DNA of 18,343 nucleotides from a virus (taxonomy: Duplodnaviria; Heunggongvirae; Uroviricota; Caudoviricetes): the IMG/VR virus record IMGVR_UViG_2526164601_000033, one strand, 5' to 3'. Below the pieces are notes generated by a model. The model was not told the origin of the DNA. It saw only the letters and a program-made list of their open reading frames with translations, and made no database searches. Positions 1 through 18,343 of the stretch are shown piece after piece. The position numbers and the translations under genes were made by a program. Numbering within the stretch: position 1 is the stretch's first letter; the number at the start of each line of letters is the position of its first letter.

Positions 1-1131
1 TCAAATGACCAGTTTTTTCCATTCCTTACCGCGTGCGTCGTTGTAAATATCGGTCATTTTTTGATTCGAATGGCCTAGCAAAATTTTGGTATCAACCCCC
101 TGCTCTCTGAACAATCGCTCTGATAAAGATCTCTGCTCATGGAAAGAGGGAGGGGTGCCATTAGCACGCCAGTTGTAATCCACAGAATCCCGGGCTTTTT
201 TAAATGCAACGGTTAATGTTGCTGGCTTAACCATCCCGCCTCGCTTAGCTGTCCCTTTCGCGTGATGGTGGTGCAATAGCCACGGACTAAGAACGCAATC
301 GCGGCAGGATGACACCACATCATCCAGGGTGAGATTTAATTTATCGCAACGCAGAGCCAGAGGGATGGCAATCCGGGTTCCTGTTTTTTGCTGTTCGACA
401 TGAAGATAACCATCCCGGATATCCGAAAATTGCATTTTGCAAATATCTGAAAGGCGCTGGCCTGTCATCAGTGCCAGCAGCATACCGCGCTGTAAAAAGT
501 AACCATCCTTTTCCGCTGCGTTATAAATCATCATCCACTCATCAAAAGTCAGTCGCTGTCTTGATATCCGCACCTGCGGTTTTTTTGCCGATTCTGCAGG
601 GTTAAAGCCTGGCGGGACATCGCCCGTTTGCTGAGCTTCCCGGAAAACATCGATCAGTACTTTCCTGAAAATTTGTCCCATTCTGTTATGTCCTCTGGCC
701 TTGTACTCTTCCAGTACTGATACCACATCTTTTACGGTTATGGCATCTAACGGTCTGGTGCCAAAACGTTCATCAAATACCCTGAGAGGGGCCGCTTTCT
801 GTTTCAGCGTGTTGAGTTTGATCTCGCCGTTTTCATATCTTTCCTGTTGAATTTTTCTGTAATTATTCAGAAAAATGGTAACGGTTGATGAACCGCCGGT
901 ATCACTAATAATTTTCTCCTGCAGACTGAGCATTTGTTCCATTTGCTGCCGGGCAAGACGGCTGTTCGCTTCTGCTGCAATAGTTTCTGCCAGTTTCTGG
1001 TCAATACTGCCGAGACCGTGATTTTTGCCTGTTATGGGATGCCTGTAACGCCAGTAAACTTTGTTATTTCTTTTGTCAAAATACGGAGATAATCCCGGAA
1101 CATCGGTTTTATATTTTCGCGGGCGCGCCAT
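1..1131 (-). CDS. int: Tyrosine recombinase, lambda-family phage integrase
   Basis: 376-aa ORF. The overall layout and the C-terminal block ILLGHSNQKMTDIYNDARGKEW closely parallel lambda Int (HLLGHKSDTMASQYRDDRGREW, catalytic Tyr) as recalled. It is the terminal gene of the leftward arm and its start overlaps an excisionase-like gene. Confidence 0.9.
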   Translation of the reverse strand: MARPRKYKTDVPGLSPYFDKRNNKVYWRYRHPITGKNHGLGSIDQKLAETIAAEANSRLARQQMEQMLSLQEKIISDTGGSSTVTIFLNNYRKIQQERYENGEIKLNTLKQKAAPLRVFDERFGTRPLDAITVKDVVSVLEEYKARGHNRMGQIFRKVLIDVFREAQQTGDVPPGFNPAESAKKPQVRISRQRLTFDEWMMIYNAAEKDGYFLQRGMLLALMTGQRLSDICKMQFSDIRDGYLHVEQQKTGTRIAIPLALRCDKLNLTLDDVVSSCRDCVLSPWLLHHHHAKGTAKRGGMVKPATLTVAFKKARDSVDYNWRANGTPPSFHEQRSLSERLFREQGVDTKILLGHSNQKMTDIYNDARGKEWKKLVI

Positions 1132-1357
1132 CTTCCAGTATCCTCTTCAAAGCAGGGTGATCTGTGGCGATCACCTCCGGCTTGTTTACCATTCCGACAA
1201 AGCGAGCTTGCGGATCCACTCGCCAGCGTCTTCCAACTTTTTTGGGGAGAGGAAATATCATTCCGGCTTTAGCGTATTTACTTAACGTACTCGGAGTTGG
1301 GACCGGTTCACTGAATTCCTCTTTTGCCCACTCAGTGAGCAGAATAAGTCTTGCCAT
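1109..1357 (-). CDS. xis: Excisionase-like recombination directionality factor (small basic protein)
   Basis: 82-aa ORF immediately upstream of int on the same strand, with a 23-bp overlap of the int start (xis-int overlap as in lambda). The call rests on position and size; no sequence match to lambda Xis is claimed. Confidence 0.55.
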   Translation of the reverse strand: MARLILLTEWAKEEFSEPVPTPSTLSKYAKAGMIFPLPKKVGRRWRVDPQARFVGMVNKPEVIATDHPALKRILEDGAPAKI

Positions 1358-1421
1358 GAGCGTCGTTCGCTAATCATGGTCGCCGCCACTATAGCTGGTG
1401 GGCAACGACCGGGGTTGAACA

Positions 1422-3893
1422 TTAAAAATCAGCCTGATTCGGGATCAGTTTTTGCCAGATAACTGAAACGTATTTTGCCTGGTAACGGGCGTCATCAAGT
1501 GCATTATGGCGCTCACCTTCGAATGGAATAGCCGTTCTGGCATCGAAGTCTATGGCTTTCCCCAGCTCAACGATTGTGCGTACATCGCGATCGTTGTAGT
1601 AACGCCACGGGCAGGGGATCCCCTGCCGTTCGTATGAACGGCGCAAAATCGTGTTGTCGAAGTTGGCTCCATTTCCCCAGACCTGAACAAAAAATTCACC
1701 GGAGTTTTCGTCGATAAATTCCCGCAATTGTAACAGTGCATCATCTAACGGGATTTCATCGGTCATAATGGCAGATTGCGCTTCGCGTGATTGCTTAAGC
1801 CACCATTTAATGGTGTCCCGATCAATGACCCCGCCAGCAGTTTCCAGATCGATAGTCTTACTAAATTCCGGCCCCATATCTCCGGTTTGCGGATCGAAAA
1901 ATATTGCACCTATTGAGATGATCGGGGCATCAGGATTTTTTCCCATGGTTTCAAGGTCGATCATTAGATGGTCACACGTCCTGCTGGTGGATGTGATTTC
2001 TTGATGACCGTTCACCTTAATTGAGTGATCTGCCGTCTCGCCAGTTTCATTATCGCTATCGTGATGCTGATTGCCGTCAGTGTTCTCCTTGTGTGGATGT
2101 TCAGCGCCTTCCATTTCCTCCGGATCATCTTCCTGAACTTCAACCTGATACTCTTCATCGAATGTTTCCTGGTATGTTGCGTCGCCCATCACCGCGCCAC
2201 AATCAGGGCAGTTGCCGCCGCCGGTCTGACCGCAGGCGGTGCAGACTTTTTCCGGTTCCTGTTGCGCTACTGGCTCAGGTTGTTTCGTTTCTGGCTCGTT
2301 TTGTTGCGTATTTGGGCTGTTTTGTTCCGCTTTCTGGTCGTTCTGTTCCGATTCTTGCTGGTTCTGGTTTACAGAATCGCGGGTTTCAATCCCCTTTACC
2401 CATTTCGGATCATTCGGGTCGCTAATCCCTGCAACAAATTCTCCGCGAGAGGCAGCAAGCAACTTATCGGCGTCAGGCTGGCTGATATTGGCTGCCTGCA
2501 TAATTTTGTTTACTTCGTCAGCGGTAACTTTTACCGGCTCTGGTTGTGCGGTCGTGTCAGATGCACCAGTATTTTGTTGTGAACCTGAGTACGTGCCGTT
2601 TTTACGTGCGAAGTATTCCTCTTTTGTGATTTCCGTAGCTCCCAAGGCTAGTGCTTTTTCCAGACCAGAAAGTTTGTTTGCGCGACCGTATTTTTCGCCA
2701 TCCTTGTCGGTGAAGAGGAAGTAGAACGGCCCCTCACGCTCTACAGATGGTTCGACTTCCACTTTGCATTCGGTTTTTTCGTTGCCCGGAATTGCCGTTT
2801 CCACTGCATCAGTTTCTGGTACTGGCGACGAGAGAGTATCAGTTGCGCTCTGATTTCTTCCTTCATCTTCAAACACGCCCTTTGTAGTCAGGTATTCAGT
2901 AATGTATTTGTTCAGTGCCACAGGGTCTTTGTGAATGTCGATCGGACGTTCACGGACAAGGCCAAAAATAGTCTGGCGGTCGTAGCGAAGGGCATCAGGC
3001 TGTTTGCGCATTGATGCCGAGATACGCTTCCAGTCTTCGCGGTCGTTGTCGATAACTTCATTTTTTGCCCAGCGATGGATGCTGCCGTCAATGTTTCCGG
3101 CATCCACATCACCAGGCCAGAGAGCGTAGGCCAGTTCTTCATCCAGCGTTTTCCATGTCTGCTTGTATTCGCGACAAATGGCGGCAGTGACTGGGTTGAT
3201 TTTTCCTGCTGAGTTTTCAGTGTTCTGTTGATTGACTCTGGCGCTGGCGAGATCAACAACAGACGTGTATTTTCCAGTCTCTTTGCGCTCTGCGTCCTGC
3301 CGTTTTTTCCAGTTACGTAATTCAGCCTGAATTTTGGGCCATTTGGCACCCGGATTACATTTGTGTTTAACCCATCCGATAGCGAACAGTTTGCGTTCCG
3401 GATACATAGCGTTAATTTCAGGCGTTTTCATCAGTGCTTCAACGATATGCCCGTCAAAGGTAGCAACGTCTTCCTGCAGTAATTCCTGCGCGTCAATCGC
3501 CATATCAACGGTGATGTTTTCACATGTACCGAACTTAACCAGGACCGCGTTCTGTACTTCAAGGGACAGCTTGTCAAAATTGACGTTCATCGGATCGGAT
3601 TCTGGTTCGACCGGAATAAAGGAAGCGGATTCCTCATCCCAGCGGTTTTCCTGCATATATTCAGCATCCCAGGAATCGAGGGCAGGGCGGGGTATACCGG
3701 GTTTATCCTCGCAGACAAGAAATTTATAAGCGCAGTCCTGAGCAGCCGGATAATGTTCCAGGAATTGCCAGTGAAATTTTGCGCGGGCGCGACGTTCATC
3801 ACCGGCTTCAATGGCAGTGGCTACAGCGACGGCACCTTCTTCCTTTATTGCCTGTTCGTCCGGAATGGCGGCGCAAATAAAGACTTTACTCAT
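1422..3893 (-). CDS. Large phage exonuclease-domain protein (C-terminal DnaQ-like DEDDh 3'-5' exonuclease, central zinc ribbon, low-complexity linker)
   Basis: 823-aa ORF. The C-terminal region carries DLET (Exo I-like), WGNGANFD (Exo II-like) and HNALDDA (Exo III-like) motifs. A CTACG...CPDCG zinc-ribbon-like motif and a Q/N/E/P-rich linker lie upstream of it. GAGG lies about 11 nt before the ATG. Confidence 0.75.
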   Translation of the reverse strand: MSKVFICAAIPDEQAIKEEGAVAVATAIEAGDERRARAKFHWQFLEHYPAAQDCAYKFLVCEDKPGIPRPALDSWDAEYMQENRWDEESASFIPVEPESDPMNVNFDKLSLEVQNAVLVKFGTCENITVDMAIDAQELLQEDVATFDGHIVEALMKTPEINAMYPERKLFAIGWVKHKCNPGAKWPKIQAELRNWKKRQDAERKETGKYTSVVDLASARVNQQNTENSAGKINPVTAAICREYKQTWKTLDEELAYALWPGDVDAGNIDGSIHRWAKNEVIDNDREDWKRISASMRKQPDALRYDRQTIFGLVRERPIDIHKDPVALNKYITEYLTTKGVFEDEGRNQSATDTLSSPVPETDAVETAIPGNEKTECKVEVEPSVEREGPFYFLFTDKDGEKYGRANKLSGLEKALALGATEITKEEYFARKNGTYSGSQQNTGASDTTAQPEPVKVTADEVNKIMQAANISQPDADKLLAASRGEFVAGISDPNDPKWVKGIETRDSVNQNQQESEQNDQKAEQNSPNTQQNEPETKQPEPVAQQEPEKVCTACGQTGGGNCPDCGAVMGDATYQETFDEEYQVEVQEDDPEEMEGAEHPHKENTDGNQHHDSDNETGETADHSIKVNGHQEITSTSRTCDHLMIDLETMGKNPDAPIISIGAIFFDPQTGDMGPEFSKTIDLETAGGVIDRDTIKWWLKQSREAQSAIMTDEIPLDDALLQLREFIDENSGEFFVQVWGNGANFDNTILRRSYERQGIPCPWRYYNDRDVRTIVELGKAIDFDARTAIPFEGERHNALDDARYQAKYVSVIWQKLIPNQADF

Positions 3894-3988
3894 TTTGTTT
3901 TAACCTCATTACAGATTTCAGGGTGAACGAATCCCTGCCATTGCTGGCATTTTTAATCCGTTGGTATGGCGTTAATATGGCTGGCGGG

Positions 3989-4177
3989 TTATCCAGCCGG
4001 TATTTCGTTATTCAGGTTCAGCGATACTTTTTTTAACGGGAGGCATTCACCGGGGATTTTTTGTTCGTCCCTTACCTGAATGCAGGATGACTTACTGTCA
4101 TAAATTCCGGTAATCACATTTTGTGGCTCACCCGTTATAAGAAAAACGGTCATCACCAGTGCAAATGCTGAAGTCAC
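3989..4177 (-). CDS. ydfD: YdfD-like small membrane (lysis-type) protein
   Basis: 62-aa ORF with GTG start overlapping the dicB-like stop (GTGA) and GGAG about 9 nt upstream. N-terminal hydrophobic segment SAFALVMTVFLITGEP and C-terminal EQKIPGxC...NEIPAG resemble E. coli YdfD as recalled. It is immediately downstream of dicB, as in Qin. Confidence 0.6.
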   Translation of the reverse strand: MTSAFALVMTVFLITGEPQNVITGIYDSKSSCIQVRDEQKIPGECLPLKKVSLNLNNEIPAG

Positions 4178-4362
4178 TGCTGTTCTCCGATAATACCAAG
4201 TTCAAGAAGGGCAATTCTGGAAAGTATGGAATTATCATTGAGAAGATAAGGTTCATATTTTCTCATCTTAATGGCATCTTCCGTAAACTCCCGGTTACTG
4301 AGCAGAACACCAATATCAAAACAACCTTCAGACGTATTAACGTTTGGTAATAACGTTTCCAT
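4174..4362 (-). CDS. dicB: DicB-like cell-division inhibitor
   Basis: 62 aa from the ATG at 4362 (GAGGA about 9 nt upstream): METLLPNVNTSEGCFDIGV...FTEDAI matches the DicB N-terminus (MKTLLPNVNTSEGCFEIGV...) as recalled. The ORF track extends the frame to a GTG at 4467, probably not the true start. The gene is AT-rich. Confidence 0.7.
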   Translation of the reverse strand: METLLPNVNTSEGCFDIGVLLSNREFTEDAIKMRKYEPYLLNDNSILSRIALLELGIIGEQQ

Positions 4363-4531
4363 TATCGCGTCCTCAACAATGAATTTTGTGATGCGGTGCC
4401 TGGTGCCTCCAGGTGACGTTAACCAGTTAACAATTAACGCCGGATACAGAGAATCCACCCATAACACTGTTTTTGGTTTTAACTGTTCCGCGTGCGCTCA
4501 GCCGCATTCACCACATCACAAAATTCACTTT

Positions 4532-4589
4532 AAAAAGGGCGGCAGAGCAGTCACGGAGTAAAACTGATACCGCCAAACGTCACCAGAAA
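4532..4589 (-). ncRNA. dicF: DicF small regulatory RNA with its 3' terminator
   Basis: The reverse complement of 4532-4589 reads TTTCTGGTGACGTTTGGCGGTATCAGTTTTACTCCGTGACTGCTCTGCCGCCCTTTTT, which matches E. coli DicF as recalled, including the GGCGG/CCGCC terminator stem and U-run. It lies about 170 nt upstream of dicB on the same strand, as in Qin. Confidence 0.8.
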
Positions 4590-4922
4590 ATTGATAACAG
4601 AGGGCGTTGCAGCGGGGTTGTCACTTAAGCGTATGGTCAACCTGACAACCCGGTGTCCTCAACGGGGAAGGAATAACCCCTCCATACTTACCGCCGCGCC
4701 ATTTCGCGGATTGCCACAACCGGAAGCGCACGGTCGACGAAAATTTAACGACAGGCTATCTATGAACCAGCTACCTCGCCGTGCGCTTTCGCGTTATGGT
4801 CTGACTTTTCAGAGAAATATCCTTTCAGTAAACTGTCAGTGCCGGATGTTCACCCGTGTCCGGCGCACGCACTCCACTTCACCCGTGGAGAACTCCTTAA
4901 TTACCAACCCTCAGGAGGGTGA

Positions 4923-5156
4923 ATGTTAAAATCAACTCTTATTGCTAAATGCCTTTATCAAAATCGCATGGTAAGCAGCATTTCAATAGGCGAGTCTGCA
5001 GTTAAAAGTATTTTCGAAGAGTACTTTCCCGGGCATGATTTTAATAAATGGAATACCAAATTACCGCCAGCAGTTTCAACGCGTATTCTGAAAGCAACCG
5101 AAAGAGCAAGTACAATTCGCGTTAACTATTTCATTAAAGATTTGTGGGATCTTTGA
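4923..5156 (+). CDS. Hypothetical 77-aa protein on the strand opposite to the surrounding operon
   Basis: ATG preceded by a strong SD (AGGAGGGTGA-ATG). The ORF is AT-rich and its 3' end overlaps the 3' end of the convergent 135-aa gene by 23 bp. No recognisable family. Confidence 0.5.
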   Translation: MLKSTLIAKCLYQNRMVSSISIGESAVKSIFEEYFPGHDFNKWNTKLPPAVSTRILKATERASTIRVNYFIKDLWDL

Positions 5157-5541
5157 TATCCACAGAGCCTAAAGTATGTGCATATGGATGTGCTATTATG
5201 CGCCCTCGCAGATTTGCATCATTTTCTAAATTCACTGAACGAAACAGGGCATCAACAAGGCTCTGTACAATGCAAAGGCAATCGAAGACTGTCGCCGTTT
5301 CTGTTTTGATTGATGAAAGAACATGGCCATTCACGCAAACAGAAATTACCCGTTTATTAACATCGCTTTCCTGCTTTTGATTATCAGAACCATATAGCCC
5401 AGAAAAAGCATTGCGCACATTACGAACCATATTATCGATGGTTTCTTTTTCTGCGGTACTAAGGTCAAGAGTAGCCAGTTGTGAACGAACTATATTCGAT
5501 GCCATTTCCTGTAATGGCGTTGGTAAATCTTTAAATTCCAT
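5134..5541 (-). CDS. Hypothetical 135-aa protein with C-proximal R-x5-H-x-Y motif (possible HEPN-like fold)
   Basis: ORF with GAGG about 8 nt upstream of the ATG, AT-rich. Motif LRGRIIAHPY lies near the C-terminus. The gene is co-directional with and 22 bp downstream of the 72-aa gene. Confidence 0.55.
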   Translation of the reverse strand: MEFKDLPTPLQEMASNIVRSQLATLDLSTAEKETIDNMVRNVRNAFSGLYGSDNQKQESDVNKRVISVCVNGHVLSSIKTETATVFDCLCIVQSLVDALFRSVNLENDANLRGRIIAHPYAHTLGSVDIKDPTNL

Positions 5542-5563
5542 TATTAGCCTCGTTGGTTAGCTA

Positions 5564-5782
5564 TTAACGTGGGTATGTAATCATTCTGGCAATGCTTAAT
5601 GCCGCTGCTTTTTCCAGATTGGTGATATCCTGCTCCAGAGCGGACAGATTTTCAGCCTGCTTAGCCCTGGCTTCATTGGCCCATTTCAGGTCCTGCACCG
5701 CCTTAATTTTCTGGTGCATCCACTCATAAAGTTCATCATCGGTATAGTCTGGCGCGATGATGACGGGGTCTCGTTTCTGCAT
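5564..5782 (-). CDS. Hypothetical 72-aa protein (positional equivalent of ydfC in Qin)
   Basis: ATG with a strong SD (AAGGAG, 6 nt spacing). Same size and relative position as ydfC in the Qin dicB operon; sequence identity to YdfC not verified. Confidence 0.55.
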   Translation of the reverse strand: MQKRDPVIIAPDYTDDELYEWMHQKIKAVQDLKWANEARAKQAENLSALEQDITNLEKAAALSIARMITYPR

Positions 5783-5854
5783 GTCGGCTCCTTGTGGTTA
5801 GCGTTGCCTGCTTTTTAACCACGTCAGGCGAGGTGGTATCCTCTGAGGGGTCTG

Positions 5855-6211
5855 TTACTCGAGAGGAAATTGGTTATGAATACAATCAAGTTTTCTTGCC
5901 CAGAATGTGGTGGCTAAGTCTTTGACACATCCTTTAAGCCGCAGGGCTCTGACAGTTTCGCGGGAGCCATCTGCAAAAATTGTGGTCACCTTGTAACTGA
6001 AGATGAGTCCTCGCAGTTCGATGACGAAATCGTTGACAATATCTTCGGTGCACTCACCAGAGACTTTCTGAAGTAAAGGCGCATACCGCTTAGTTACCGC
6101 TCTGATAACTCTTACCTGTCCGGCAATGGCGCTGATATCAATATAAAGCGCCATCGCTGTTTCTTTGCTGATCCCTGGACGCCTTCCATTCTGATGTTTG
6201 ACTTCGCCCAC
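5855..6211 (-). CDS. Hypothetical 118-aa protein, first gene downstream of the OL-like region
   Basis: ORF with GTG start preceded by AGAGGA 8-13 nt upstream; an internal ATG (residue 20) is an alternative start. No recognisable motif. Confidence 0.4.
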   Translation of the reverse strand: MGEVKHQNGRRPGISKETAMALYIDISAIAGQVRVIRAVTKRYAPLLQKVSGECTEDIVNDFVIELRGLIFSYKVTTIFADGSRETVRALRLKGCVKDLATTFWARKLDCIHNQFPLE

Positions 6212-6289
6212 TGAGAAATCCTCTGCTTCCCCTTAACGCCGGGTAGCGGAACTGTTTGCTGAGAACACCGTGCGGTGTCTTGATGAGTA

Positions 6290-6345
6290 GAATTTAGAAT
6301 AGCCTAAGAGTTATGGTCAAGCTTTTTGTGTAGAAAAACCTAAGC
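6290..6345. promoter_or_regulatory. OL-like operator/promoter cluster downstream of the repressor gene
   Basis: TTAGAATAGCCTAA at 6294-6307 and, on the minus strand, TTAGGTTTTTCTAC (plus 6330-6343) share the TTAG-N6-CTAA/C pattern of the repressor-proximal operators; the second is one mismatch from the OR site TTAGGTTTCTCTAC. A leftward -35-like TTGACC (plus 6315-6320) sits between them. Confidence 0.4.
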
Positions 6346-6418
6346 TTCTTGATGTAAAAAACACAAGTATTTGAAAGTTTGTGCTTTTTATTACAGAGAG
6401 TTGCGAAAAAAAGGGGGG

Positions 6419-6826
6419 TTATTTATTTGCGCTTCTTTTGCGAGCTTTGAGTAGTTCTTCAAAAAGTTTGTTGAAATTCTCAACTCGAGCACGCATCTCT
6501 GACAACAGAGCCTTTTGCTCTGACTCAGGCAGTGCGTCGAACAGTTGAAGCAACTCTTTTTGATCTTCTGTCAGATTGACTGGCTGATTATCTGGGATCG
6601 GTTCGCCTGGTTGCTTATCTTCATCTCCAAAAAGAAGCCAAGTCGGCGAGCACTGAAGCGCCTGGCTCAGTGCGAATAATCTCTTCCCCGCTGGCTGTGT
6701 TTCATCTCTTTCCCATTGAGAAATTGTTACGTGAGCCACTTTGACCAGCTTACCTAATGCGGCCTGAGACAGTTTTAATTTTTTTCGCCTGTATAAGAGG
6801 CGAGCACCGAAGGTTTCGTTTTTCAT
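6419..6826 (-). CDS. dicA: DicA-like HTH (XRE/CI-type) prophage repressor
   Basis: 135-aa ORF. The HTH segment SQAALGKLVKVAHVTISQWE and the blocks QCSPTWLLFGDEDKQP, LFDALPESEQ and EMRARVENFNKLFEELLKAR match E. coli DicA as recalled. It is divergent from a Cro-like gene across an operator-bearing intergenic region. Confidence 0.85.
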   Translation of the reverse strand: MKNETFGARLLYRRKKLKLSQAALGKLVKVAHVTISQWERDETQPAGKRLFALSQALQCSPTWLLFGDEDKQPGEPIPDNQPVNLTEDQKELLQLFDALPESEQKALLSEMRARVENFNKLFEELLKARKRSANK

Positions 6827-6827
6827 A

Positions 6828-6892
6828 TTAGGTAATTCTAATTTTTCTTGACTTAGGTTTCTCTACGATCTAGTTTCCTTAGGAAAATCTAA
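6828..6892. promoter_or_regulatory. OR-like operator region: three TTAG-N6-CTAA/C inverted repeats between divergent repressor and cro-like genes
   Basis: Sites TTAGGTAATTCTAA (6828-6841), TTAGGTTTCTCTAC (6853-6866) and TTAGGAAAATCTAA (6879-6892), spaced about 25-26 bp centre to centre. Rightward -35-like TTGACT at 6848-6853. Leftward -10-like TAGAAT (plus 6835-6840) ends 8 nt before the repressor ATG, suggesting a leaderless or near-leaderless repressor mRNA. Confidence 0.5.
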
Positions 6893-6902
6893 GGGGTTCG
6901 AT

Positions 6903-7130
6903 ATGTTGAAAATTGATGCTATAGCGTTTTTTGGCAGCAAAACAAAGCTTGCCAATGTCGCAGGAGTTAGGCTGGCAAGCGTTGCTGCATGGGGGGAACT
7001 GGTTCCTGAAGGTCGCGCGATGCGCCTGCAAGAGGCATCCGGCGGGGAACTTCAGTACGACCCCAAAGTTTATGACGAATATCGTAAGGCAAAGCGGGCG
7101 GGGCGGTTGAACAATGAAAATCACCACTGA
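6903..7130 (+). CDS. dicC: Cro-like HTH regulator (DicC/YdaS family)
   Basis: 75-aa ORF with AAGGGG about 8 nt upstream. Divergent partner of the DicA-like gene; block GRAMRLQEASGGELQYDPKVYDEYRK resembles DicC as recalled (less certain than the DicA recall). Confidence 0.75.
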   Translation: MLKIDAIAFFGSKTKLANVAGVRLASVAAWGELVPEGRAMRLQEASGGELQYDPKVYDEYRKAKRAGRLNNENHH

Positions 7131-9131: not shown

Positions 9132-9164
9132 GTTGAGAAGTGATTTTTTACCGGGAGGAAATTT

Positions 9165-10591: not shown

Positions 10592-10758
10592 CATGTAAGG
10601 TTTATACTCTTCAATATGCGTATAATTTTCCTTATTTTGTTGACTTTAAATAACAAGCTATGCACGAGGTAAAGTCGGATAAGTTTATCTGGATGTAATA
10701 TATATTATTTGTAGTGTTTATAACTTTATTTCATGATAACCAATAAAAGGAGTTTTTT

Positions 10759-11517: not shown

Positions 11518-11520
11518 CAT

Positions 11521-11549
11521 CCTCGTCCTTCAGGACGTGGATTCTTTTT
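11521..11549 (+). terminator. Possible intrinsic terminator after the binding-protein gene
   Basis: Imperfect stem CCTCGTCCT / AGGACGTGG followed by ATTCTTTTT. One mismatch in the stem and the T-run is offset. Confidence 0.35.
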
Positions 11550-11852
11550 CCGGATGCCGCGCCAGCGGCATGTAGGGGCAGCTCACAAAACGGAAAAAAT
11601 TGTACGCTAAGCCTCGCCAGGTGAACTGAATTCATTCCGATATGGGAATTCCCATATCGGGCGAAAACGGTTTGCTGTAACGGCAGAGTTAAGTAGGATT
11701 GCTGCGGGTGCTTGAGGCTATCTGCCTCGGGCATGAACACCAACGGCAGATAGATAAAAGCCCCACCCGACTATAAATCGAAGTGAGGCCCCTATATGCT
11801 CGTCACATATAGATTGCCTCTTACGGACCGAAAGGTCAAGGAGAAGCAGGCT

Positions 11853-12008
11853 ATGAAGCAGCAAAAGGCGATGTTAATCGCCCTGATCGTCATCTGTTTA
11901 ACCGTCATAGTGACGGCACTGGTAACGAGGAAAGACCTCTGCGAGGTACGAATCCGAACCGGCCAGACGGAGGTCGCTGTCTTCACAGCTTACGAACCTG
12001 AGGAGTAA
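11853..12008 (+). CDS. hokD: Hok/Gef-family membrane toxin (type I toxin-antitoxin toxin)
   Basis: 51-aa product MKQQKAMLIALIVICLTVIVTALVTRKDLCEVRIRTGQTEVAVFTAYEPEE matches HokD/RelF as recalled. AAGGAG SD. A long structured leader lies upstream, with palindromes at 11637-11660 and 11792-11812. Confidence 0.85.
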   Translation: MKQQKAMLIALIVICLTVIVTALVTRKDLCEVRIRTGQTEVAVFTAYEPEE

Positions 12009-12076
12009 GAGACCAGGCGGGGGAGAAATCCCTCGCCACCTCTGATGTGTCAGGCATCCTCAACGCACCCGCACTT

Positions 12077-12105
12077 AACCCGCTTCGGCGGGTTTTTGTT
12101 TTTAT
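12077..12105 (+). terminator. Rho-independent terminator downstream of hok
   Basis: Stem AACCCGC / GCGGGTT with TTCG loop, followed by TTTTTGTTTTT. Confidence 0.6.
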
Positions 12106-12116
12106 TTTCAACGCGT

Positions 12117-12146
12117 TTGAAGTTCCGGACGGCGCCGGAATAGAAT
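12117..12146 (+). promoter_or_regulatory. Promoter-like element with a palindrome in the spacer
   Basis: -35-like TTGAAG (12117-12122), 18-bp spacer containing the inverted repeat TTCCGG...CCGGAA, -10-like TAGAAT (12141-12146). Placed after the hok terminator and upstream of the Rem-like gene. Confidence 0.35.
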
Positions 12147-12228
12147 CAAAAATACTTAAGTAGCGCGCAGGGAGAAGAGGGATGGACCCCGAACAGGGGA
12201 GTGCTATTTATCTGGAAGGATTCTGTTG

Positions 12229-12486
12229 ATGAGAATCGAAGAATTACGTGAAATTTTTAGTGAAGGTGGCCTCTATACTGTGCGCGTTGAGAAGGGCGCT
12301 ATTGTCAGCCACTGCCGTATTAAATGTTTACAGTCTCAACAAAGGAAGAGTGGAGCTGCGTTAATTCATTTTGTGGATGGGCTTGTGACGGATGGTTTTA
12401 TTTTGCGTGCAAATGAATTTGTCACATCGTTGCCGTCTCTGAAAGAAGCTGGGATTAAGGCTGGTTTTTCTGCTTTTGAAGATTAG
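12229..12486 (+). CDS. Rem-like hypothetical protein (positional equivalent of rem in Qin)
   Basis: 85 aa from the ATG at 12229 (the track start 12226 is TTG). Sits immediately downstream of hokD and upstream of a DUF968-like gene, matching the hokD-rem-ydfU order of Qin. Sequence identity to Rem not verified. Confidence 0.5.
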   Translation: MRIEELREIFSEGGLYTVRVEKGAIVSHCRIKCLQSQQRKSGAALIHFVDGLVTDGFILRANEFVTSLPSLKEAGIKAGFSAFED

Positions 12487-12555
12487 TGAATTCATCTACA
12501 ATTCAGCGCAGGGCTGAACCCCTGTTGAGTAACACTGTGCCACCGGAGAAAGCCG

Positions 12556-12834
12556 ATGGCGCAAAATTCCAGACTACACAATTCTGATAATTCAGCCGTC
12601 TTTGCCAGCAGGCACGGGCGGCGTTCTCATGCATTCAAATCTGACTGGTTCCGGCACGCCCCATGCACTGAAGAACAGGCCGAATGGCTGATTCAGAACT
12701 ACCGCAGACGTGGGTATGAGTTTAGGAAAGCCCTCAGCCTCGATTATCGTCACTGGATAATCTACGTCAGGCTGCCGTACTCCGAGCGCCCACCGCGTCC
12801 GTCCCGCACATTCCAGCAACGCATCTGGAGGTAA
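12556..12834 (+). CDS. Hypothetical 92-aa basic protein
   Basis: ATG with GGAGAAAG SD. Arg/His-rich; no recognisable family. Confidence 0.45.
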   Translation: MAQNSRLHNSDNSAVFASRHGRRSHAFKSDWFRHAPCTEEQAEWLIQNYRRRGYEFRKALSLDYRHWIIYVRLPYSERPPRPSRTFQQRIWR

Positions 12835-12835
12835 C

Positions 12836-13891
12836 GTGCGGGTATTACTTCGACCTGTTCCGGTACCGGAACTTGGGTTGGTGGTCCTTAAACCAGGCCG
12901 TGAATCCATGCAGGTATTCCATAACCCTCGAGTGCTTGTGGAGCCGGAACCGAAAAGCATGCGCGGTCTGCCGTCCGGCATCGTCCCTGCCGTTCGCCAG
13001 CCGCTGGCGGAGGATAAATCATTACTGCCGTTTTTCAGCAATGAGCGTGTGATTCGTGCTGTTGGTGGCGCTGGTGCACTGTCTGACTGGCTGTTGCGTC
13101 ATGTCAAATCCTGCCAGTGGCCTCATGGTGACTATCATCACAGTGAAACCGTTATTCACCGTTATGGTACCGGCGCAATGGTGTTGTGCTGGCACTGCGA
13201 CAACCAGCTGCGTGACCAGACATCCGAATCACTCGAGCAACTTGCTCATCAAAACCTGTCAGCATGGATGATTGACGTCATCGGTCACGCAATAAGCGGT
13301 ACGCAGGAGCGTGAATTATCTCTGGCTGAATTATCCTGGTGGGCGGTCCGCAATCAGGTGGCGGACGCGCTACCGGAAGCGGTATTACGTCGTTCGCTGG
13401 GGTTGCGTGCGGAAAAAATCCGCTCAATGTACCGTGAAAGCGACATCGTACCGGGAGAGCAGACCGCCACCATCATACTGAAGCAGCGCACAAAAAATCT
13501 TGCGCCGCTGCCTCACGCCCACCAGCAAAACCCGCCACAGGAAAAGACGGTGGTCAGCATTGCCGTTGATCCGGAGTCACCGGCTCAGTATCTCCAGCGC
13601 CAGAAACCACAACGGGAAGAGATGCCTGTATACACGCGCTGGGTAAAAACGCAGAAATGCATGACGTGCGGTAATCAGGCAGATGATCCGCATCACATCA
13701 TTGGTCATGGACTGGGAGGGATGGGAACAAAGGCTGATGATTTGTTTGTTATTCCGCTGTGCCGTAAATGTCATAACGAACTGCACGCTGGGGTAAAAGA
13801 TTTTGAAGAAAAACACGGCAGCCAGCTGTTGTTGCTGATTCGTTTTTTAATGCACGCGAGAAATTCGGGTGTCCTGAAGTGGAAAGCATGA
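12836..13891 (+). CDS. DUF968-like (YdfU-like) protein with C-terminal Cys/His zinc-binding-type motif
   Basis: GTG start with a strong SD (TGGAGGTAAC-GTG); alternative ATG at 12908. The C-terminus carries KCMTCGN...HHIIGHG...CRKCHNELH. The family call is by recollection of nin-region proteins. Confidence 0.65.
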   Translation: MRVLLRPVPVPELGLVVLKPGRESMQVFHNPRVLVEPEPKSMRGLPSGIVPAVRQPLAEDKSLLPFFSNERVIRAVGGAGALSDWLLRHVKSCQWPHGDYHHSETVIHRYGTGAMVLCWHCDNQLRDQTSESLEQLAHQNLSAWMIDVIGHAISGTQERELSLAELSWWAVRNQVADALPEAVLRRSLGLRAEKIRSMYRESDIVPGEQTATIILKQRTKNLAPLPHAHQQNPPQEKTVVSIAVDPESPAQYLQRQKPQREEMPVYTRWVKTQKCMTCGNQADDPHHIIGHGLGGMGTKADDLFVIPLCRKCHNELHAGVKDFEEKHGSQLLLLIRFLMHARNSGVLKWKA

Positions 13892-14257
13892 ATGACTGAA
13901 CGGATAGAATTTGTTTTGCCTTACCCGCCGACGGTGAATACCTACTGGCGACGTCATGGCAATACGTATTTCATCTCGGAAGCCGGAAAGCGTTATCGCC
14001 GTGATGTGGCGCTAATTGTTCGCCAGCAGCGGCTGAAATTAAACCTGTCCGGAAGGCTGGTGATAAAGATTATTGCAGAGCCACCGGATAAGCGCCGTCG
14101 TGACCTGGACAATATCCTGAAAGCACCACTGGATGTGCTGACGCATGCCGGACTTCTCATAGACGACGAGCAGTTTGATGAAATCAATATTGTGCGCGGT
14201 CAGCTCGTTCCTGGTGGGCGGCTGGGGATAAAAATCACAGAACTGGAGTGCGCATGA
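13892..14257 (+). CDS. rusA: RusA Holliday-junction resolvase
   Basis: 121-aa ORF. The blocks LPYPPTVNTYWRRHGN and DKRRRDLDNILKAPLDVLTHAGLLIDDEQ parallel E. coli RusA ([45 protein letters not shown]) as recalled. Confidence 0.9.
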   Translation: MTERIEFVLPYPPTVNTYWRRHGNTYFISEAGKRYRRDVALIVRQQRLKLNLSGRLVIKIIAEPPDKRRRDLDNILKAPLDVLTHAGLLIDDEQFDEINIVRGQLVPGGRLGIKITELECA

Positions 14258-14475
14258 ATAACCACTATTTACAGTTTGTGCGTGAGCAGCTCATTATCGC
14301 CACCGCTGATTTGAGTGGGGCAACAAAAGGTCAGCTTGAAGCCTGGCAGGAGAATGCCATGTTCGATACAGGGCGTTACAGGCGAAAAAAAATCCGGTAC
14401 CGCGATGAAGTGACTGGAAAAATGATAACGCGGGATAATCCACCAATCGTTATTATCCTGCGCCCGGCCCTTTAG
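14254..14475 (+). CDS. Hypothetical 73-aa protein; 3' end runs 10 nt into the first tRNA
   Basis: ATG at 14254 overlaps the rusA stop (ATGA), with GGAG 5 nt upstream. The stop codon TAG at 14473-14475 lies inside the tRNA. It occupies the position where a late antiterminator Q gene would be expected but is too short for one. Confidence 0.35.
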   Translation: MNNHYLQFVREQLIIATADLSGATKGQLEAWQENAMFDTGRYRRKKIRYRDEVTGKMITRDNPPIVIILRPAL

Positions 14476-14541
14476 CTCAGTGGTGAGAGCGAGCGACTCA
14501 TAATCGCCAGGTCGCTGGTTCAAATCCAGCAAGGGCCACCA
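14466..14541 (+). tRNA. tRNA-Ile2-like (anticodon CAU; Met cannot be excluded from sequence alone)
   Basis: Manual cloverleaf: acceptor GGCCCTT/AAGGGCC, D-arm GCTC-AGTGGTGA-GAGC, anticodon loop CTCATAA, T-arm GCTGG-TTCAAAT-CCAGC, encoded CCA. Resembles E. coli ileX-type tRNA as recalled. Confidence 0.8.
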
Positions 14542-14542
14542 A

Positions 14543-14618
14543 CCGCCACTAGCCATCAGGAAAGAGCGTCAACCCTTTAAGTTGAGTGTGCGAGGTTCGA
14601 GTCCCCGGTGGTGGTCCA
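14543..14618 (+). tRNA. tRNA-like sequence, degenerate (possible pseudo-tRNA); predicted anticodon loop CCTTTAA
   Basis: Acceptor CCGCCAC/GTGGTGG (one G-U pair) plus encoded CCA and a canonical GGTTCGAGTCC T-loop. The D-stem has only two Watson-Crick pairs (GCCA versus GAGC), the T-stem has an A-C mismatch, and position 33 is C rather than U. Confidence 0.4.
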
Positions 14619-14631
14619 TTATCGGTATTCT

Positions 14632-14705
14632 GCGTTGTTAGCTCAGCAGGACAGAGCAATTGCCTTCTAAGCAATCGGTCACTGGTTCGACTCCAGTACA
14701 ACGCG
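14632..14705 (+). tRNA. tRNA-Arg (anticodon UCU, reads rare AGA)
   Basis: Manual cloverleaf: acceptor GCGTTGT/ACAACGC, D-arm GCTC-AGCAGGAC-AGAGC, anticodon stem ATTGC/GCAAT with loop CTTCTAA, T-arm ACTGG-TTCGACT-CCAGT. CCA is not encoded. Confidence 0.8.
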
Positions 14706-14721
14706 CTACACTTATTTTCCC

Positions 14722-14746
14722 GGCTCGCTTTTGCGGGCCTTTTTTG
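14722..14746 (+). terminator. Rho-independent terminator after the tRNA cluster
   Basis: Stem GGCTCGC / GCGGGCC (one G-U pair) with TTTT loop, followed by TTTTTTG. Confidence 0.6.
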
Positions 14747-14788
14747 TATCTGCGCCACGCCCGGCGCATACCAACCACAGAGCCTTTC

Positions 14789-14798
14789 GGGGGGGGGG
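14789..14798. repeat. G10 homopolymer tract
   Basis: Ten consecutive G at 14789-14798, about 80 bp upstream of the TerB-like start codon. Confidence 0.9.
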
Positions 14799-14880
14799 AG
14801 CTTACGGAGTGGTCAGTGTGACTTTCTCTGTGGGCAGATCGCTCCCGGGCGTTGGCTCACCCACCCAAAGGAACGTCACG

Positions 14881-15313
14881 ATGTTTGGTATTTTTGGTAA
14901 AAAAAGCCCGCAGAGCGGCAACGGAAATTAAAAAGTTTGAAAAACGCGATCTGGCACAGGTGGTGATTAACGCCGCCTACCTGGTGGCCTGTGCAGATGG
15001 TGAATGTGAGGCTTCCTAGAAAGCGAAGATCGAACAGGTACTGCGTAATCAGCCTGCGCTGTACGCGTTTACGTCAGAAATTAATGCGATTAGCGCAACC
15101 ATTATCGGTCAGCTGGATACGAACTTTAAAACTGGTCGTCGTGCGGCGTTACGTGAGATCGAGGATGTGAAACACGATACGCGTGAAGCGGAAGATGTGC
15201 TGGATGTGGCGGTGGCCATTGCGGAGGCAGACGGCGAAATTGAGCCGGAAGAGCGCAAGGTGCTGGAAGAGATTGCCGGTGTTCTGGGTCTTCGTCTGGA
15301 GAATTACCTGTGA
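14881..15313 (+). pseudogene. TerB-like (tellurite-resistance TerB family) gene disrupted by a frameshift in an A7 tract and an in-frame TAG
   Basis: ATG at 14881 (AAGGAA SD) reads MFGIFGKKSPQSGNGN then stops at 14929-14931. The +1 frame from about 14906 continues ...FEKRDLAQVVINAAYLVACADGECEAS-TAG(15017-15019)-KAKIEQVL...AVAIAEADGEIEPEERKVLEEIAGVLGLRLENYL, ending at 15311-15313. The ADGE..EE motifs are TerB-like as recalled. The frame change maps to the A7 run at 14899-14905. Confidence 0.6.
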
Positions 15314-15477
15314 CGGTAAAACTGCGCCTGACTGTGGCTGCACTCCTGCTGTTTCTGGTGGTGATGGTGGATTTCACCAGCAGAATCATGTCGGTGCTGG
15401 CGGATGGGGTGCTGGTCTGCGGCATTATGGTATTGCTGTGGCCGGTGATAAAAAGAAACAGCCTGCATAATGCTTGA
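15310..15477 (+). CDS. Possible small membrane protein (55 aa, GTG start overlapping the TerB-like stop)
   Basis: The frame reads VTVKLRLTVAALLLFLVVMVDFTSRIMSVLADGVLVCGIMVLLWPVIKRNSLHNA with two hydrophobic segments. GTGA start/stop overlap and no clear SD, so weak. Confidence 0.3.
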   Translation: MTVKLRLTVAALLLFLVVMVDFTSRIMSVLADGVLVCGIMVLLWPVIKRNSLHNA

Positions 15478-15643
15478 TTTTTTGTTTGCTGTTTATTAAA
15501 AACACTTCTGCATGGTGAATCCCCCTGTGCGGAGGGGCGATCAGCAACCAGGTATATGGGATAATCGCGGATTCAGGTGCTGATACTGAATTCACCGGGA
15601 GGCACCCGGCACCATGCAAGAAAAAGAATGTGCATGCAAACAT

Positions 15644-15667
15644 GCCCCTCTCCGGAGGGGCTTTTTT
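15644..15667 (+). terminator. Rho-independent terminator in the intergenic region upstream of the esterase gene
   Basis: Stem GCCCCTC / GAGGGGC with TCCG loop, followed by TTTTTT. Confidence 0.55.
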
Positions 15668-15794
15668 ATGGGTAAAAAATGCCCGAATGGGTTCGGGCAA
15701 CAGCATGAGATACTGATATTGTTGTGTTGTTATCGTGTGGATTTTAACCAGGGTTTATCAGGCTGCGCAACTGCGTGGCCTTTTTTCATTTCTT

Positions 15795-15839
15795 GGGCTG
15801 TAGTCCCCGTGTGTCATTCAGGCTTCCGGACTACAGCCC
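15795..15839. repeat. 12-bp perfect inverted repeat (GGGCTGTAGTCC ... GGACTACAGCCC) with 21-nt spacer
   Basis: Arms at 15795-15806 and 15828-15839, about 45 bp upstream of the esterase ATG. Confidence 0.6.
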
Positions 15840-15882
15840 ACTCCATATCTGATTTAATACACTATCCCGGCCGGGAGGAATA

Positions 15883-16824
15883 ATGACATTTAAACATTAT
15901 GATGTTGTCAGGGCGGCGTCGCCGTCAGATCTTGCGGAAAAGCTGACACATAAACTGAAAGAGGGCTGGCAGCCGTTTGGTAGTCCGGTGGCCATAACCC
16001 CTTATACTCTGATGCAGGCGATTACAGCAGAAGGTGATGTGGTGGTCAGTGGTGCAACTGAGCCGGATTGGTACTACGTCATCGTACTGGCCGGGCAGTC
16101 CAATGCCATGGCTTACGGTGAAGGGCTTCCGCTGCCGGATTCATACGATGCTCCGGATCCGCGCATTAAACAGCTGGCGCGCCGCAGTACAGTGACGCCG
16201 GGTGGGGCTGCCTGCAGATATAACGATATTATTCCGGCCGACCACTGCCTGCATGATGTGCAGGATATGAGTACGCTGAATCATCCGAAGGCAGACCTGA
16301 GCAAAGGGCAGTACGGCTGTGTCGGCCAGGGGTTACATATTGCCAAAAAACTGCTCCCGTATATCCCGAATAACGCGGGGATCCTGCTGGTACCATGCTG
16401 TCGTGGTGGTTCGGCATTTACCCAGGGCGCGGAGGGGACATTCAGTGCGGACACGGGGGCCAGCCAGGATTCGGCGCGCTGGGGTGTGGGTAAACCGTTA
16501 TATCAGGACCTGATTGCGCGCACCAAAGCTGCATTACAGAAGAACCCGAAAAATGTGTTGCTGGCGGTGTGCTGGATGCAGGGAGAGTTTGACATGAGCG
16601 CCGCCACCCACGCACAGCAACCTGCGCTGTTTACAGCCATGCTGACACAGTTTCGTGCTGACCTCTCCGTGTTTAACGCGCAGTGCCATGGTGGCAGTGC
16701 TGCAGATGTGCCGTGGATTTGTGGTGACACGACGTATTACTGGAAAAATACCTACGGCACCCAGTACACCGGGAAAGCAATCGCTGGCGAAGGTGACGTC
16801 AATTCCTCTGGTCAGTCCGGTTGA
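15883..16824 (+). CDS. Sialate O-acetylesterase-like protein (NanS-p-like: N-terminal DUF1737-like segment plus SGNH/SASA esterase domain), apparently truncated
   Basis: 313-aa ORF with GGGAGG SD. Motif LAGQSNAMAYGE (the GQSN block of SGNH/SASA esterases) and WMQGEFD (WxQGESD-like). Synteny with prophage nanS-p paralogues downstream of the tRNA cluster in lambdoid/Stx phages; those are usually much longer. Confidence 0.75.
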   Translation: MTFKHYDVVRAASPSDLAEKLTHKLKEGWQPFGSPVAITPYTLMQAITAEGDVVVSGATEPDWYYVIVLAGQSNAMAYGEGLPLPDSYDAPDPRIKQLARRSTVTPGGAACRYNDIIPADHCLHDVQDMSTLNHPKADLSKGQYGCVGQGLHIAKKLLPYIPNNAGILLVPCCRGGSAFTQGAEGTFSADTGASQDSARWGVGKPLYQDLIARTKAALQKNPKNVLLAVCWMQGEFDMSAATHAQQPALFTAMLTQFRADLSVFNAQCHGGSAADVPWICGDTTYYWKNTYGTQYTGKAIAGEGDVNSSGQSG

Positions 16825-17263
16825 GTTTTCGACATCATCGTGGCGGCGGGCTGTTCTGTCTCTTGAAGAACATCATAAAGCCTGGTTGTTGTGGTGTTAC
16901 AGCGGGAGTATTTGTTGGGAATATCAGATCGCGATAACACAGTGGGCGTGGAATGAATTTAATACTCAATCCGGTACCAGAAAAATTGCTGGGAAAACGC
17001 AGGAACGCCTGAAAAAATTAATCTGGCTGGCGGCGCAGGCAGTAAAAGCAGAACTTTTTGGTGGGGAAGGTTATGAATATCAGGAGCTGGCATTACTGGC
17101 GGGAGTGACAACTAAAAACTGGTCCAAAACATTTACTCGTCACTGGGTTGCAATGAAACACATTTTTCACCGACTGGATAGTGAGGCTTTATTATTTGTA
17201 ATGAGAACACGTTCAAAACAAAAGGCGGCATTTTCAAAGCAATGTGTTGCAAAAGTAGATTGA
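16825..17263 (+). other. Open reading frame without a credible start, in a different phase downstream of the esterase stop (possible frameshifted C-terminal remnant)
   Basis: The track ORF 16655-17263 is stop-free for 202 codons but has no ATG with an SD after 16824. The part upstream of 16824 is the alternate frame of the esterase gene. Confidence 0.3.
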
Positions 17264-17326
17264 AAGGCATATATTTCATGCAAATCTGATATTTTGCCGA
17301 TTTTGTACGTGATGGCAAAAGCAAAC

Positions 17327-17354
17327 AAAACCCGCCCACAAGCGGGTTTTGTTG
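17327..17354 (+). terminator. Rho-independent terminator (hairpin plus T-run)
   Basis: Stem AAAACCCGC / GCGGGTTTT with CCACAA loop, followed by GTTGT. An A-run precedes it, so it could act in both directions. Confidence 0.6.
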
Positions 17355-17500
17355 TGCCACTTATCTCGGATAGACATGGTGAATGCGCTGGTGGAGGAGA
17401 TAAGGGTGATTTTTGTATGCTTGCAACATTGATTTCGTAACACACCATTTACGGGGCGTACAAAAACAGGGAGAGTGAGGGCGTTTATTTTGTGCCCTTC

Positions 17501-18343
17501 ATGACAGACGGTAACGGCGTCAATACCGCCACTAACGCGCCGGCAGAAGATCCGGATATTCCGGCATCAGGATATTACGGTGCGGCATCGAGAACGAATG
17601 GAAACCAGGTATCATCAAACCGCCCGACACATTTCAGTTCATGGGCGCGCAGGAGCATTATTCCGGATCGTCTGGCAACCGCTATTCTGAACGCAGCCGG
17701 GCGCACCTCAGCCTTCATCAGTGGTAAGGCACCGGAAATCAAACCCTCGCCCGGCGGCAACACGCCATCGGGTCCGTCTGCAGATACGTCCGTTCGCACA
17801 ATCTCCCTGCTGCCGGCAGCCGGAGAGGCTGCTGCGCAGGGCTGGAGCATTAAGGATGGCGGAATTCAGTTGTCGGGTGGTGTATTTAAGATCACCAAGC
17901 AGAGCAATAAAACCTGGTCCCTGACGCATCCGGTGGATGACGCAATTACCCTGCTGACACAGGGCGGCAGACTGACCTGTAAGTTCCGCCTGTCAGGCGC
18001 ACTGACCAACAATCAGTTCGGGCTGGGGATTTATCTGTATACGGATGCTCCCGTTCCTGATGGTGTGGCGATGACGGGTACCGGTAATCCGTTCCTGATG
18101 TCGTACTTCACTCAGACCACTGACGGCAGAGTGAATCTGATGCATCACAGGAAAGCCGGAAACACGAAGCTGGGGGAGTTCGGCGATTACGGTAACGACT
18201 GGCAGACGCTGGAGCTGGTGTTCACCGCCGGCAGTGCCACGGTTACTCCGAAACTGAATGGAGTGGCTGGCCCGGCATTCCAGGTTATAAAAGACAGTCT
18301 GACACTGGGACTGAATGCGCTGACGCTGACGGATGTTACAAAA
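17501..18343 (+). CDS. Hypothetical protein, 3'-truncated by the window end (beta-rich, Gly/Thr-rich)
   Basis: Manual translation from the ATG at 17501 runs 281 codons to the window end without a stop. It is absent from the ORF track, presumably because no stop falls inside the window. An in-frame GTG at 17492 is an alternative start. No family recognised. Confidence 0.5.
   Translation, partial: MTDGNGVNTATNAPAEDPDIPASGYYGAASRTNGNQVSSNRPTHFSSWARRSIIPDRLATAILNAAGRTSAFISGKAPEIKPSPGGNTPSGPSADTSVRTISLLPAAGEAAAQGWSIKDGGIQLSGGVFKITKQSNKTWSLTHPVDDAITLLTQGGRLTCKFRLSGALTNNQFGLGIYLYTDAPVPDGVAMTGTGNPFLMSYFTQTTDGRVNLMHHRKAGNTKLGEFGDYGNDWQTLELVFTAGSATVTPKLNGVAGPAFQVIKDSLTLGLNALTLTDVTK

Follow-up and report, generated by a model that had tools for sequence, protein, structure and literature searches.

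The integrase-to-esterase half of an ompW-integrated lambdoid prophage of the PPompW lineage in Escherichia coli O26:H11 strain DEC9E

A widespread prophage beside ompW

The virus record IMGVR_UViG_2526164601_000033, a stretch of 18,343 nucleotides that was analysed in full and is hereafter called the window, very probably represents the integrase-to-esterase half of an ompW-integrated lambdoid prophage (PPompW lineage) of E. coli DEC9E (O26:H11). The element is known and very widespread, and a 673-bp block displaced at the right end of the window is most likely a contig-ordering error. The window forms the 3'-terminal 18.3 kb of the draft contig AIGO01000025.1 (152,062 bp; assembly GCA_000249975.2), and its positions 5883-18343 were 100% identical to that contig, whose proteins are listed under the name E. 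coli DEC9E. It runs from the stop codon of the integrase gene to 1 base short of the contig end, within an esterase gene; because the contig ends inside this gene, the late region of the prophage lies on other contigs, and the type III effector locus (EEL) and 21-bp secondary attB by which PPompW is recognized at its far right end fall outside the window. The original prediction, made from the letters of the window alone, had described a mosaic prophage of lambda-, Qin-, Rac-, P- and Stx-phage-type modules with non-standard cargo, and had suggested looking for an att site beyond the window. Such a site was found. In the source contig, ompW adjoins the integrase gene, about 44-45 bp beyond it and to the left of the window. 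A perfect copy (100% identity) of the 121-bp att repeat known from the annotation of PPompW record LC567822 also lies there, outside the window on its left (attL). With ompW and the 121-bp att beside the integrase gene, the window is thus the left, early half of an ompW-integrated lambdoid prophage.

A megablast comparison with 5426 complete E. coli genomes gave 454 that contain 80% or more of the window, always beside ompW, and the best matches reached 99.7-99.8% identity. Moreover, 11 phage records, which were either PPompW or Stx2a phages nested in PPompW, matched 84% of the window at 99.9% identity, within the range 1-17441. Positions 1-14795 were 99.9-100% identical to the published PPompW phages LC567818-LC567841; direct alignment to LC567822 covered 1-14795 and 16769-17441, with 99.9% identity over 1-14448. 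Once the displaced block had been restored to its usual place, the window was collinear with the ompW prophage of the O26:H11 reference strain 11368 (NC_013361.1, from 1740094), at 99.87% identity over 16.3 kb and then 97.8% over 1.8 kb. The 11368 prophage carries the same genes in the same order, every supposed cargo position included. An end-to-end alignment to one described prophage, which the original prediction had named beforehand as the result that would speak against it, was therefore obtained.

The window shares with PPompW, a prophage of EHEC and EPEC strains (Nakamura et al. 2021, PMC8112680), the integration site, the 121-bp att, the gene order from int to the esterase, and the cargo, namely orf77/orf135, paa with a fimbrial pseudogene, hok/sok, the tRNAs, the TerB pseudogene and DUF3927. 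It differs in that the Q block is displaced into the esterase gene and in that a 272-bp AgvB segment stands in place of 180 bp. In the O145:H28 PPompW records, unlike in the window, part of the region right of the tRNAs has been lost in a deletion linked to ISEc20. Nakamura et al. (2021, PMC8112680) reported PPompW in 44% of 767 complete genomes and in 92 serotypes, and all the copies that they examined were defective.

Gene content and relation to known prophages

The features of the window are listed in Table 1. At the DNA level, the share of the window that could be aligned was 27% for Qin, 9.4% for 933W, 5.9% for Rac and 0% for lambda. Compared in this way, the backbone is best described as an intact Qin relative, to which are added a replication module no longer present in Qin and the start of a late region of the Stx-phage type. 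Qin (E. coli K-12) shares ydfE, the ydfD-like gene, dicB, DicF, ydfC, dicA, dicC, ydfX, hokD, rem and ydfU, and the shared 27% aligns at 73-95% DNA identity. However, Qin is located at ydfJ and is decayed, having lost its int function and replication genes, and it has neither the 634-bp insert, paa, the tRNA/TerB/esterase region nor the window's type of Q. The temperate coliphages Evi (LR597642) and vB_EcoS-689R5 (ON470583; 689R5 below) are 84-97% identical to the window in the backbone formed by the exonuclease gene, the dic region and hok-ydfU-rusA, but differ in their integration modules, immunity genes and P-to-hok cargo; neither has paa, and Evi is without the esterase. The proposed origin of the modules in different reference prophages comes largely from naming, most of the backbone being that of an intact relative of the decayed Qin. 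It was confirmed that the window holds the early region of a lambdoid prophage, and the element is a mosaic in the way that lambdoid phages usually are.

Table 1. Features of the window, with strand and supporting evidence
Feature	Position	Strand	Evidence and remarks
Integrase, tyrosine recombinase	1-1131	-	Pfam Arm-DNA-bind_1 (7e-22), Phage_integrase (1e-16)
Excisionase	1109-1357	-	Pfam Exc (1.3e-7)
YdfE-type exonuclease, 823 amino acids	1422-3893	-	Pfam YdfE_N, YdfE_C, C-terminal Rv2179c-like DEDD 3'-5' domain
DUF1482 (YdfD-like) gene and dicB cell-division inhibitor gene	3989-4362	-	Pfam DUF1482, DicB
DicF small RNA	4537-4588	-	Rfam RF00039, 76.7 bits vs gathering score 48
634-bp insert relative to Qin, between dicF and ydfC	4910-5543		Qin contiguous there (18062/18063)
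orf77	4923-5156	+	PHROG family of unknown function
orf135	5134-5541	-	PHROG family of unknown function; operon strand, convergent and overlapping with orf77
ydfC	from 5564	-	94% amino acid identity to Qin YdfC
Hypothetical gene	5855-6211	-	phrog_21318, unknown function; replaces Qin ydfA/ydfB
DicA-like repressor	6419-6826	-	Pfam HTH_3; 63% amino acid identity to Qin DicA
DicC/Cro-like protein	6903-7130	+	Pfam P22_Cro; 83% amino acid identity to Qin DicC
YdaT-family, CII-like regulator	7114-7665	+	Pfam YdaT_toxin (PF06254); PHROG 'CII-like transcriptional activator' (4.5e-40)
DnaT-domain initiator	7637-8677	+	Pfam DnaT; PHROG replication initiation protein
P-family helicase loader, 153 amino acids	8670-9131	+	Pfam Phage_lambda_P; PHROG P-like helicase loader
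DUF1627 protein, Rac ydaW homologue	9165-9899	+	Pfam DUF1627; 91% amino acid identity over 147 residues
Low-GC cargo island: small open reading frame, fimbrial-subunit pseudogene, paa	9900-11660	+	GC content; RefSeq annotation of collinear prophages
paa, AcfC-family adhesin Paa/AdfO	10759-11517	+	Pfam SBP_bac_11; named Paa in protein cluster look-up
hokD/sok type I toxin-antitoxin	11706-12008	+	Rfam sok, 103.9 bits vs 59, at 11706-11855
rem, hypothetical gene, ydfU (DUF968 and HNH), rusA	12226-14257	+	Pfam Rem, DUF968, HNHc_6, RusA
Q antiterminator gene, 5' 195 bp	14254-14448	+	Cut after codon 65; alignments to references
tRNA cluster: tRNA(CAT), degenerate middle element, tRNA-Arg(TCT)	14466-14706	+	ARAGORN, 3; Rfam, outer two only
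TerB-like (tciA-like) pseudogene	from 14881	+	Pfam TerB; in-frame TAG at 15017
DUF3927 gene	15310-15477	+	Pfam DUF3927
STnc100	15481-15673	+	Rfam, 145.8 bits vs 47
AgvB anti-GcvB RNA	15674-15735	-	Rfam, 95.6 bits vs 56; convergent with STnc100
Sialate O-acetylesterase, 5' part (nanS-p type; DUF1737 and SASA)	15883-16768	+	Pfam; interrupted after 16768
Displaced block B: Q codons 66-229 (to 17263), promoter-like site, hairpin	16769-17441	+	Alignments to references
Esterase, 3' part (DUF6645 region)	17442-18343	+	Runs off window end

The integrase, which has an arm-binding domain of the lambda type and 36% amino acid identity to lambda Int, was the only recombination-type gene that resembled one of lambda's. 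Searches with tblastn for lambda Exo, Bet and Gam and for Rac RecT gave no match in the window. Lambda O, P, Q, N, cII and xis, 933W Q, Qin Q (ydfT), and Rac ydaU, ydaV and kilR were also without a match there, and the sole exceptions among the tblastn queries were the middle region of RecE and a 29-residue match to YdaT. The only nuclease for general recombination in the window is the YdfE-type protein with its DEDD domain. The Rv2179c-like domain of this exonuclease spans residues 642-813 (Pfam, 2e-67), residues 1-256 are 87% identical to the Qin pseudogene ydfE, and residues 262-625 are 39% identical to the middle region of RecE, which is not the RecE nuclease domain; the latter domain is lacking in the protein. 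The window contains no lambda Red-type module, and the lambda-like recombination originally assigned to it was not found.

The Qin-like dic immunity of the original prediction was confirmed by the Rfam match to DicF and by the presence of the complete dic set in Qin order (the divergently transcribed dicA/dicC pair, DicF, dicB and ydfC). Amino acid identity to Qin was 48% for the ydfD-like protein and 61% for DicB; given the degree of identity between the two DicA proteins (Table 1), the immunity specificity probably differs from that of Qin. Within the 634-bp insert, neither orf77 nor orf135 had a Pfam or PADLOC match, and orf135 also had no match in the PDB. The pair is found in phage Evi as well, and 689R5 and PhiR42_1 hold a different small open reading frame (ORF) at this place. 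Each of the two ORFs occurs on roughly at least 1000 contigs. One source labelled orf77 a 'dGTP triphosphohydrolase', which was rejected as implausible for a protein of 77 amino acids.

The YdaT-like gene lies directly after the cro-like gene and overlaps the end of dicC. It had been called Rac-like, and its product does belong to the YdaT_toxin family; however, its nearest relative is Qin YdfX, to which its N-terminal 93 residues are 87% identical, and the match to Rac YdaT is limited to 29 residues at 41%. Judged by sequence, the gene is the intact form of Qin ydfX and not an import from Rac. The protein had no PDB relative at E<=0.001.

In the replication module, the iteron-like sequence ACACCCAAAAAC is present in 4-5 copies at 7923-8119, inside the gene for the DnaT-domain initiator (5 matches, compared with 1.9 expected in shuffled sequence). 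These repeats would fit an origin within the initiator gene, which at a count modestly above expectation is suggestive only. A P-type loader had been named earlier, and the P-family protein in the window is without the N-terminal third of lambda P: its match to Phage_lambda_P (4e-16) covers only profile positions 50-161 of 162, its PHROG match covers positions 74-235 of 236, and tblastn with lambda P found nothing, the N-terminal third being missing or different. One profile, phrog_15931 (482 positions), spans both the C-terminal part of the initiator and the whole loader, and fused or mis-called versions of the two genes thus exist in other phages. The DUF1627 gene is intact in the window (244 amino acids) and in LC567822; in 11368, EH2252 and PEC240 a frameshift is annotated, owing to a one-base difference.

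Downstream of the cargo, hok/sok has the same position as in Qin, Evi, 689R5 and PhiR42_1, and it is thus backbone rather than cargo. The locus contains a 70-amino-acid ORF at 11796-12008, where hokD is annotated in the collinear prophages. The rem/ydfU/rusA block is 70-80% identical to Qin in amino acid sequence, and hokD-rem-ydfU is 84% identical to Qin in DNA sequence. For the ORFs at 10029-10340 and 12556-12834, and for the DUF proteins, Pfam and PADLOC gave nothing useful, and PHROGs gave only families of unknown function.

Cargo slots of variable content are a textbook feature of related lambdoid phages. The original prediction had placed non-standard cargo at three positions, which were the insert in the dicB operon, a binding-protein/hok unit and the TerB-like locus. 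The contents of these positions do differ among Qin, Evi, 689R5, PhiR42_1 and 933W, but hok/sok has to be removed from the list, and the window holds the occupants that are usual in this prophage lineage. In the interval from P to hok, Evi has an acetyltransferase gene, 689R5 has about 10 ea22-type genes, and PhiR42_1 and Qin have flxA-ydfV-relBE. The window carries paa here; the GC content at 10001-11000 and 10501-11500 was 0.42 and 0.40, respectively, compared with 0.43-0.55 elsewhere. Just upstream of paa, at about 10064-10597, the RefSeq annotation of collinear genomes has a fimbrial-subunit pseudogene with a frameshift and an internal stop. The arrangement suggests that paa arrived with the remnant of a fimbrial operon.

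The slot between Q and the holin contains stx in 933W, only tRNAs in 689R5, and the TerB/DUF3927 pair in Evi. Window positions 14422-14756 correspond to 21076-21419 of 933W (the tRNAs), and 15492-15990 to 22789-23296 (downstream of stxB); the position of stx2AB is thus taken by window 14757-15491, with the TerB pseudogene and DUF3927. Neither Stx2A nor Stx2B had a tblastn match in the window. A Stx-phage-like tRNA/esterase region without stx had been proposed, and the match in order to 933W bears this out. As to the TerB-like locus, it does occupy the stx slot, but the TerB gene itself is a pseudogene. The Stx2 phage 933W has the same order of tRNAs, cargo slot, small RNAs and nanS-type esterase, with 86% DNA identity in the tRNA region (ileZ-argN-argO), 75% downstream of the slot, and 67% amino acid identity between the esterases. 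It differs from the window in having stx2AB in the slot and another Q type, as well as other immunity, replication and recombination genes (933W has exo, bet and gam).

Of the tRNAs, the one with anticodon CAT is given as Ile in the RefSeq annotation. A tRNA-Lys(ttt) called by ARAGORN at 14543-14618 had no Rfam tRNA match even at E<=0.1 and is absent from the RefSeq annotation. This middle element is probably a decayed tRNA, and it lies where argN is found in 933W. For AgvB, a CACAACA motif was seen in the reverse complement of 15674-15735 and a putative terminator hairpin at 15699-15680, and its position fits the published description of an RNA of about 60 nt that lies downstream of pR', converges on a partner small RNA, and has CACAACA near its 5' end and a terminator (Tree et al. 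2014, PMC4104026). A consensus scan for promoters and terminators gave counts near the shuffled expectation (24 vs 19.9; 27 vs 19.9) and was used only for the few hairpins that coincide with Rfam RNAs.

The displaced block and alternative readings

To the right of position 14448, the original prediction overlooked a split Q gene and an interrupted esterase gene. The references have the order A (to 14448), B (673 bp), C (2320 bp) and D, whereas the order in the window is A-C-B-D. Block B, which normally lies between 14448 and 14449, is shifted to the right by 2.3 kb in the window and interrupts the esterase gene. Besides the larger part of Q, it holds two elements at 17247-17353, namely a promoter-like site where Q ends and then, at 17324-17353, a strong hairpin. 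The order A-B-C-D was found in every reference aligned through the region, which included EH2252, PEC240, 11368 and the unrelated phage 689R5; LC567822 has A-B and the start of C only, before an insertion sequence-linked deletion. When block B was moved back, an intact Q of 229 amino acids with a single substitution was obtained, together with an esterase frame that is open to the window end.

A displacement during preparation of the window was ruled out, as the chimeric proteins (EHW60040.1 and EHW60041.1) sit in the deposited NCBI assembly. Small repeat contigs that were misordered and abutted in scaffolding are the most likely cause, which would make the displacement an assembly error and not biology. 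The alternative is that the displacement is real in DEC9E, where it would split Q and the esterase gene and separate the promoter/terminator region downstream of Q from the tRNAs and late genes. We regard this as improbable. The order is indeed present in the deposited assembly and reflected in its gene calls, PPompW is generally defective with many inactivating lesions (PMC8112680), and a simple mis-join in the assembly graph is not explained by any junction repeat, no repeat, microhomology or target-site duplication having been found at the three breakpoints. However, a real event would have required a precise three-breakpoint cut-and-paste without homology, duplication or the signature of a mobile element. 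Moreover, when 161-bp probes across the A/C (14448|14449) and C/B (16768|16769) junctions were searched against the 5426 complete genomes, neither was found whole in any of them, and in the indexed public assemblies no contig but this one encodes the two chimeric proteins. The change falls within 3.9 kb of the end of a draft contig composed of multi-copy prophage segments: B, C and D are each present in such genomes in up to 10-13 places, and the contig ends 902 bp past the last junction. Finally, the complete genome of the sister strain DEC9B has the canonical order.

A further question is posed by window 15618-15889, where 272 bp with AgvB and the 3' end of STnc100 stand in place of 180 unrelated bases of the canonical PPompW references; the latter have no AgvB match and a weaker STnc100 match. 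The 272-bp form is common in other prophages; in the O103 strain RM8385, it is carried by a lambdoid prophage other than PPompW and 158 kb away from it. From about position 14930 onwards, the window could be a chimera of two prophages of one genome, and this part would then not describe PPompW; we consider this rather unlikely, though less so than a real displacement. In its favour, window 14932-16767 and 17442-18343 match the second, non-ompW prophage of RM8385 at 98.4% and 99.0%, AgvB segment included, and the 5' third of the esterase gene is only 95.8% identical to PPompW of 11368 and EH2252. However, with the 272-bp patch set aside, the same segments match PPompW of PEC240 at 99.1-99.6%, and most of the divergence at the right end is therefore accounted for by allelic variation or by recombination among PPompW copies; also, the stretch with the tRNAs and TerB (14448-15617) has its closer match in PPompW (99.1-99.2%). 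Least credible of all, and in our judgement very improbable, is that the window is an unusual mosaic of lambda, Qin, Rac, P-type and Stx modules whose non-standard cargo provides a new and informative map of insertion hot spots. The three slots do differ among relatives, and Qin is without the 634-bp insert. However, the same set, cargo included, is present in the 454 complete genomes; at about 99.7% identity, the combination thus recurs hundreds of times, and prophage records already published have it too. Moreover, lambda Red genes are absent, the YdaT-like gene is of the Qin type, as is most of the backbone, and paa was already known on this prophage type.

Several points weigh against our interpretation of the window as one half of a known PPompW prophage with a contig-ordering error. 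The assembly error is an inference from sequence comparison. Breakpoints without shared sequence are not expected from a de Bruijn graph error, and a scaffolder that mis-ordered small repeat contigs is needed instead. At the right end, the 272-bp AgvB segment points either to genuine recombination between sister prophages or to a chimera made in assembly, and either could explain it. Moreover, orf77, orf135 and the gene at 5855-6211 remained without an assigned function after the Pfam, PADLOC and PHROG scans.

Proposed working of the prophage and its significance

Gene identities in the following outline come from the sequence, and operon structure and roles are taken from lambdoid biology. 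The integrase and excisionase would hold the prophage at the 121-bp att site at the 3' end of ompW, and the divergent DicA-like repressor and Cro-like DicC would form the immunity switch. The predicted leftward operon would comprise ydfC, two genes without known function, the DicF RNA, dicB, the ydfD-like gene and the YdfE-type exonuclease gene. The rightward operon would carry the CII-like YdaT gene, the DnaT-domain initiator gene with its internal iterons, the P-family loader gene, the Paa cargo, hok/sok, rem, ydfU, rusA and Q. Downstream of Q, the tRNAs would be followed by the decayed TerB gene and DUF3927 in the stx slot, the STnc100/AgvB pair and the nanS-type esterase gene.

The window is unsuited as a prophage reference map, since its right end has a segment order that is found in no complete genome, and automated annotation of the contig has placed two chimeric proteins in public databases. 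Earlier work has already described the element and the site at which it integrates, the Paa adhesin, DicF, AgvB and variable lambdoid cargo slots, and the biological importance of the window is little. Were the displacement nevertheless real in DEC9E, it would bring a prophage with virulence genes (paa, AgvB, DicF) one stage closer to permanent residence in the chromosome, with late transcription shut out.

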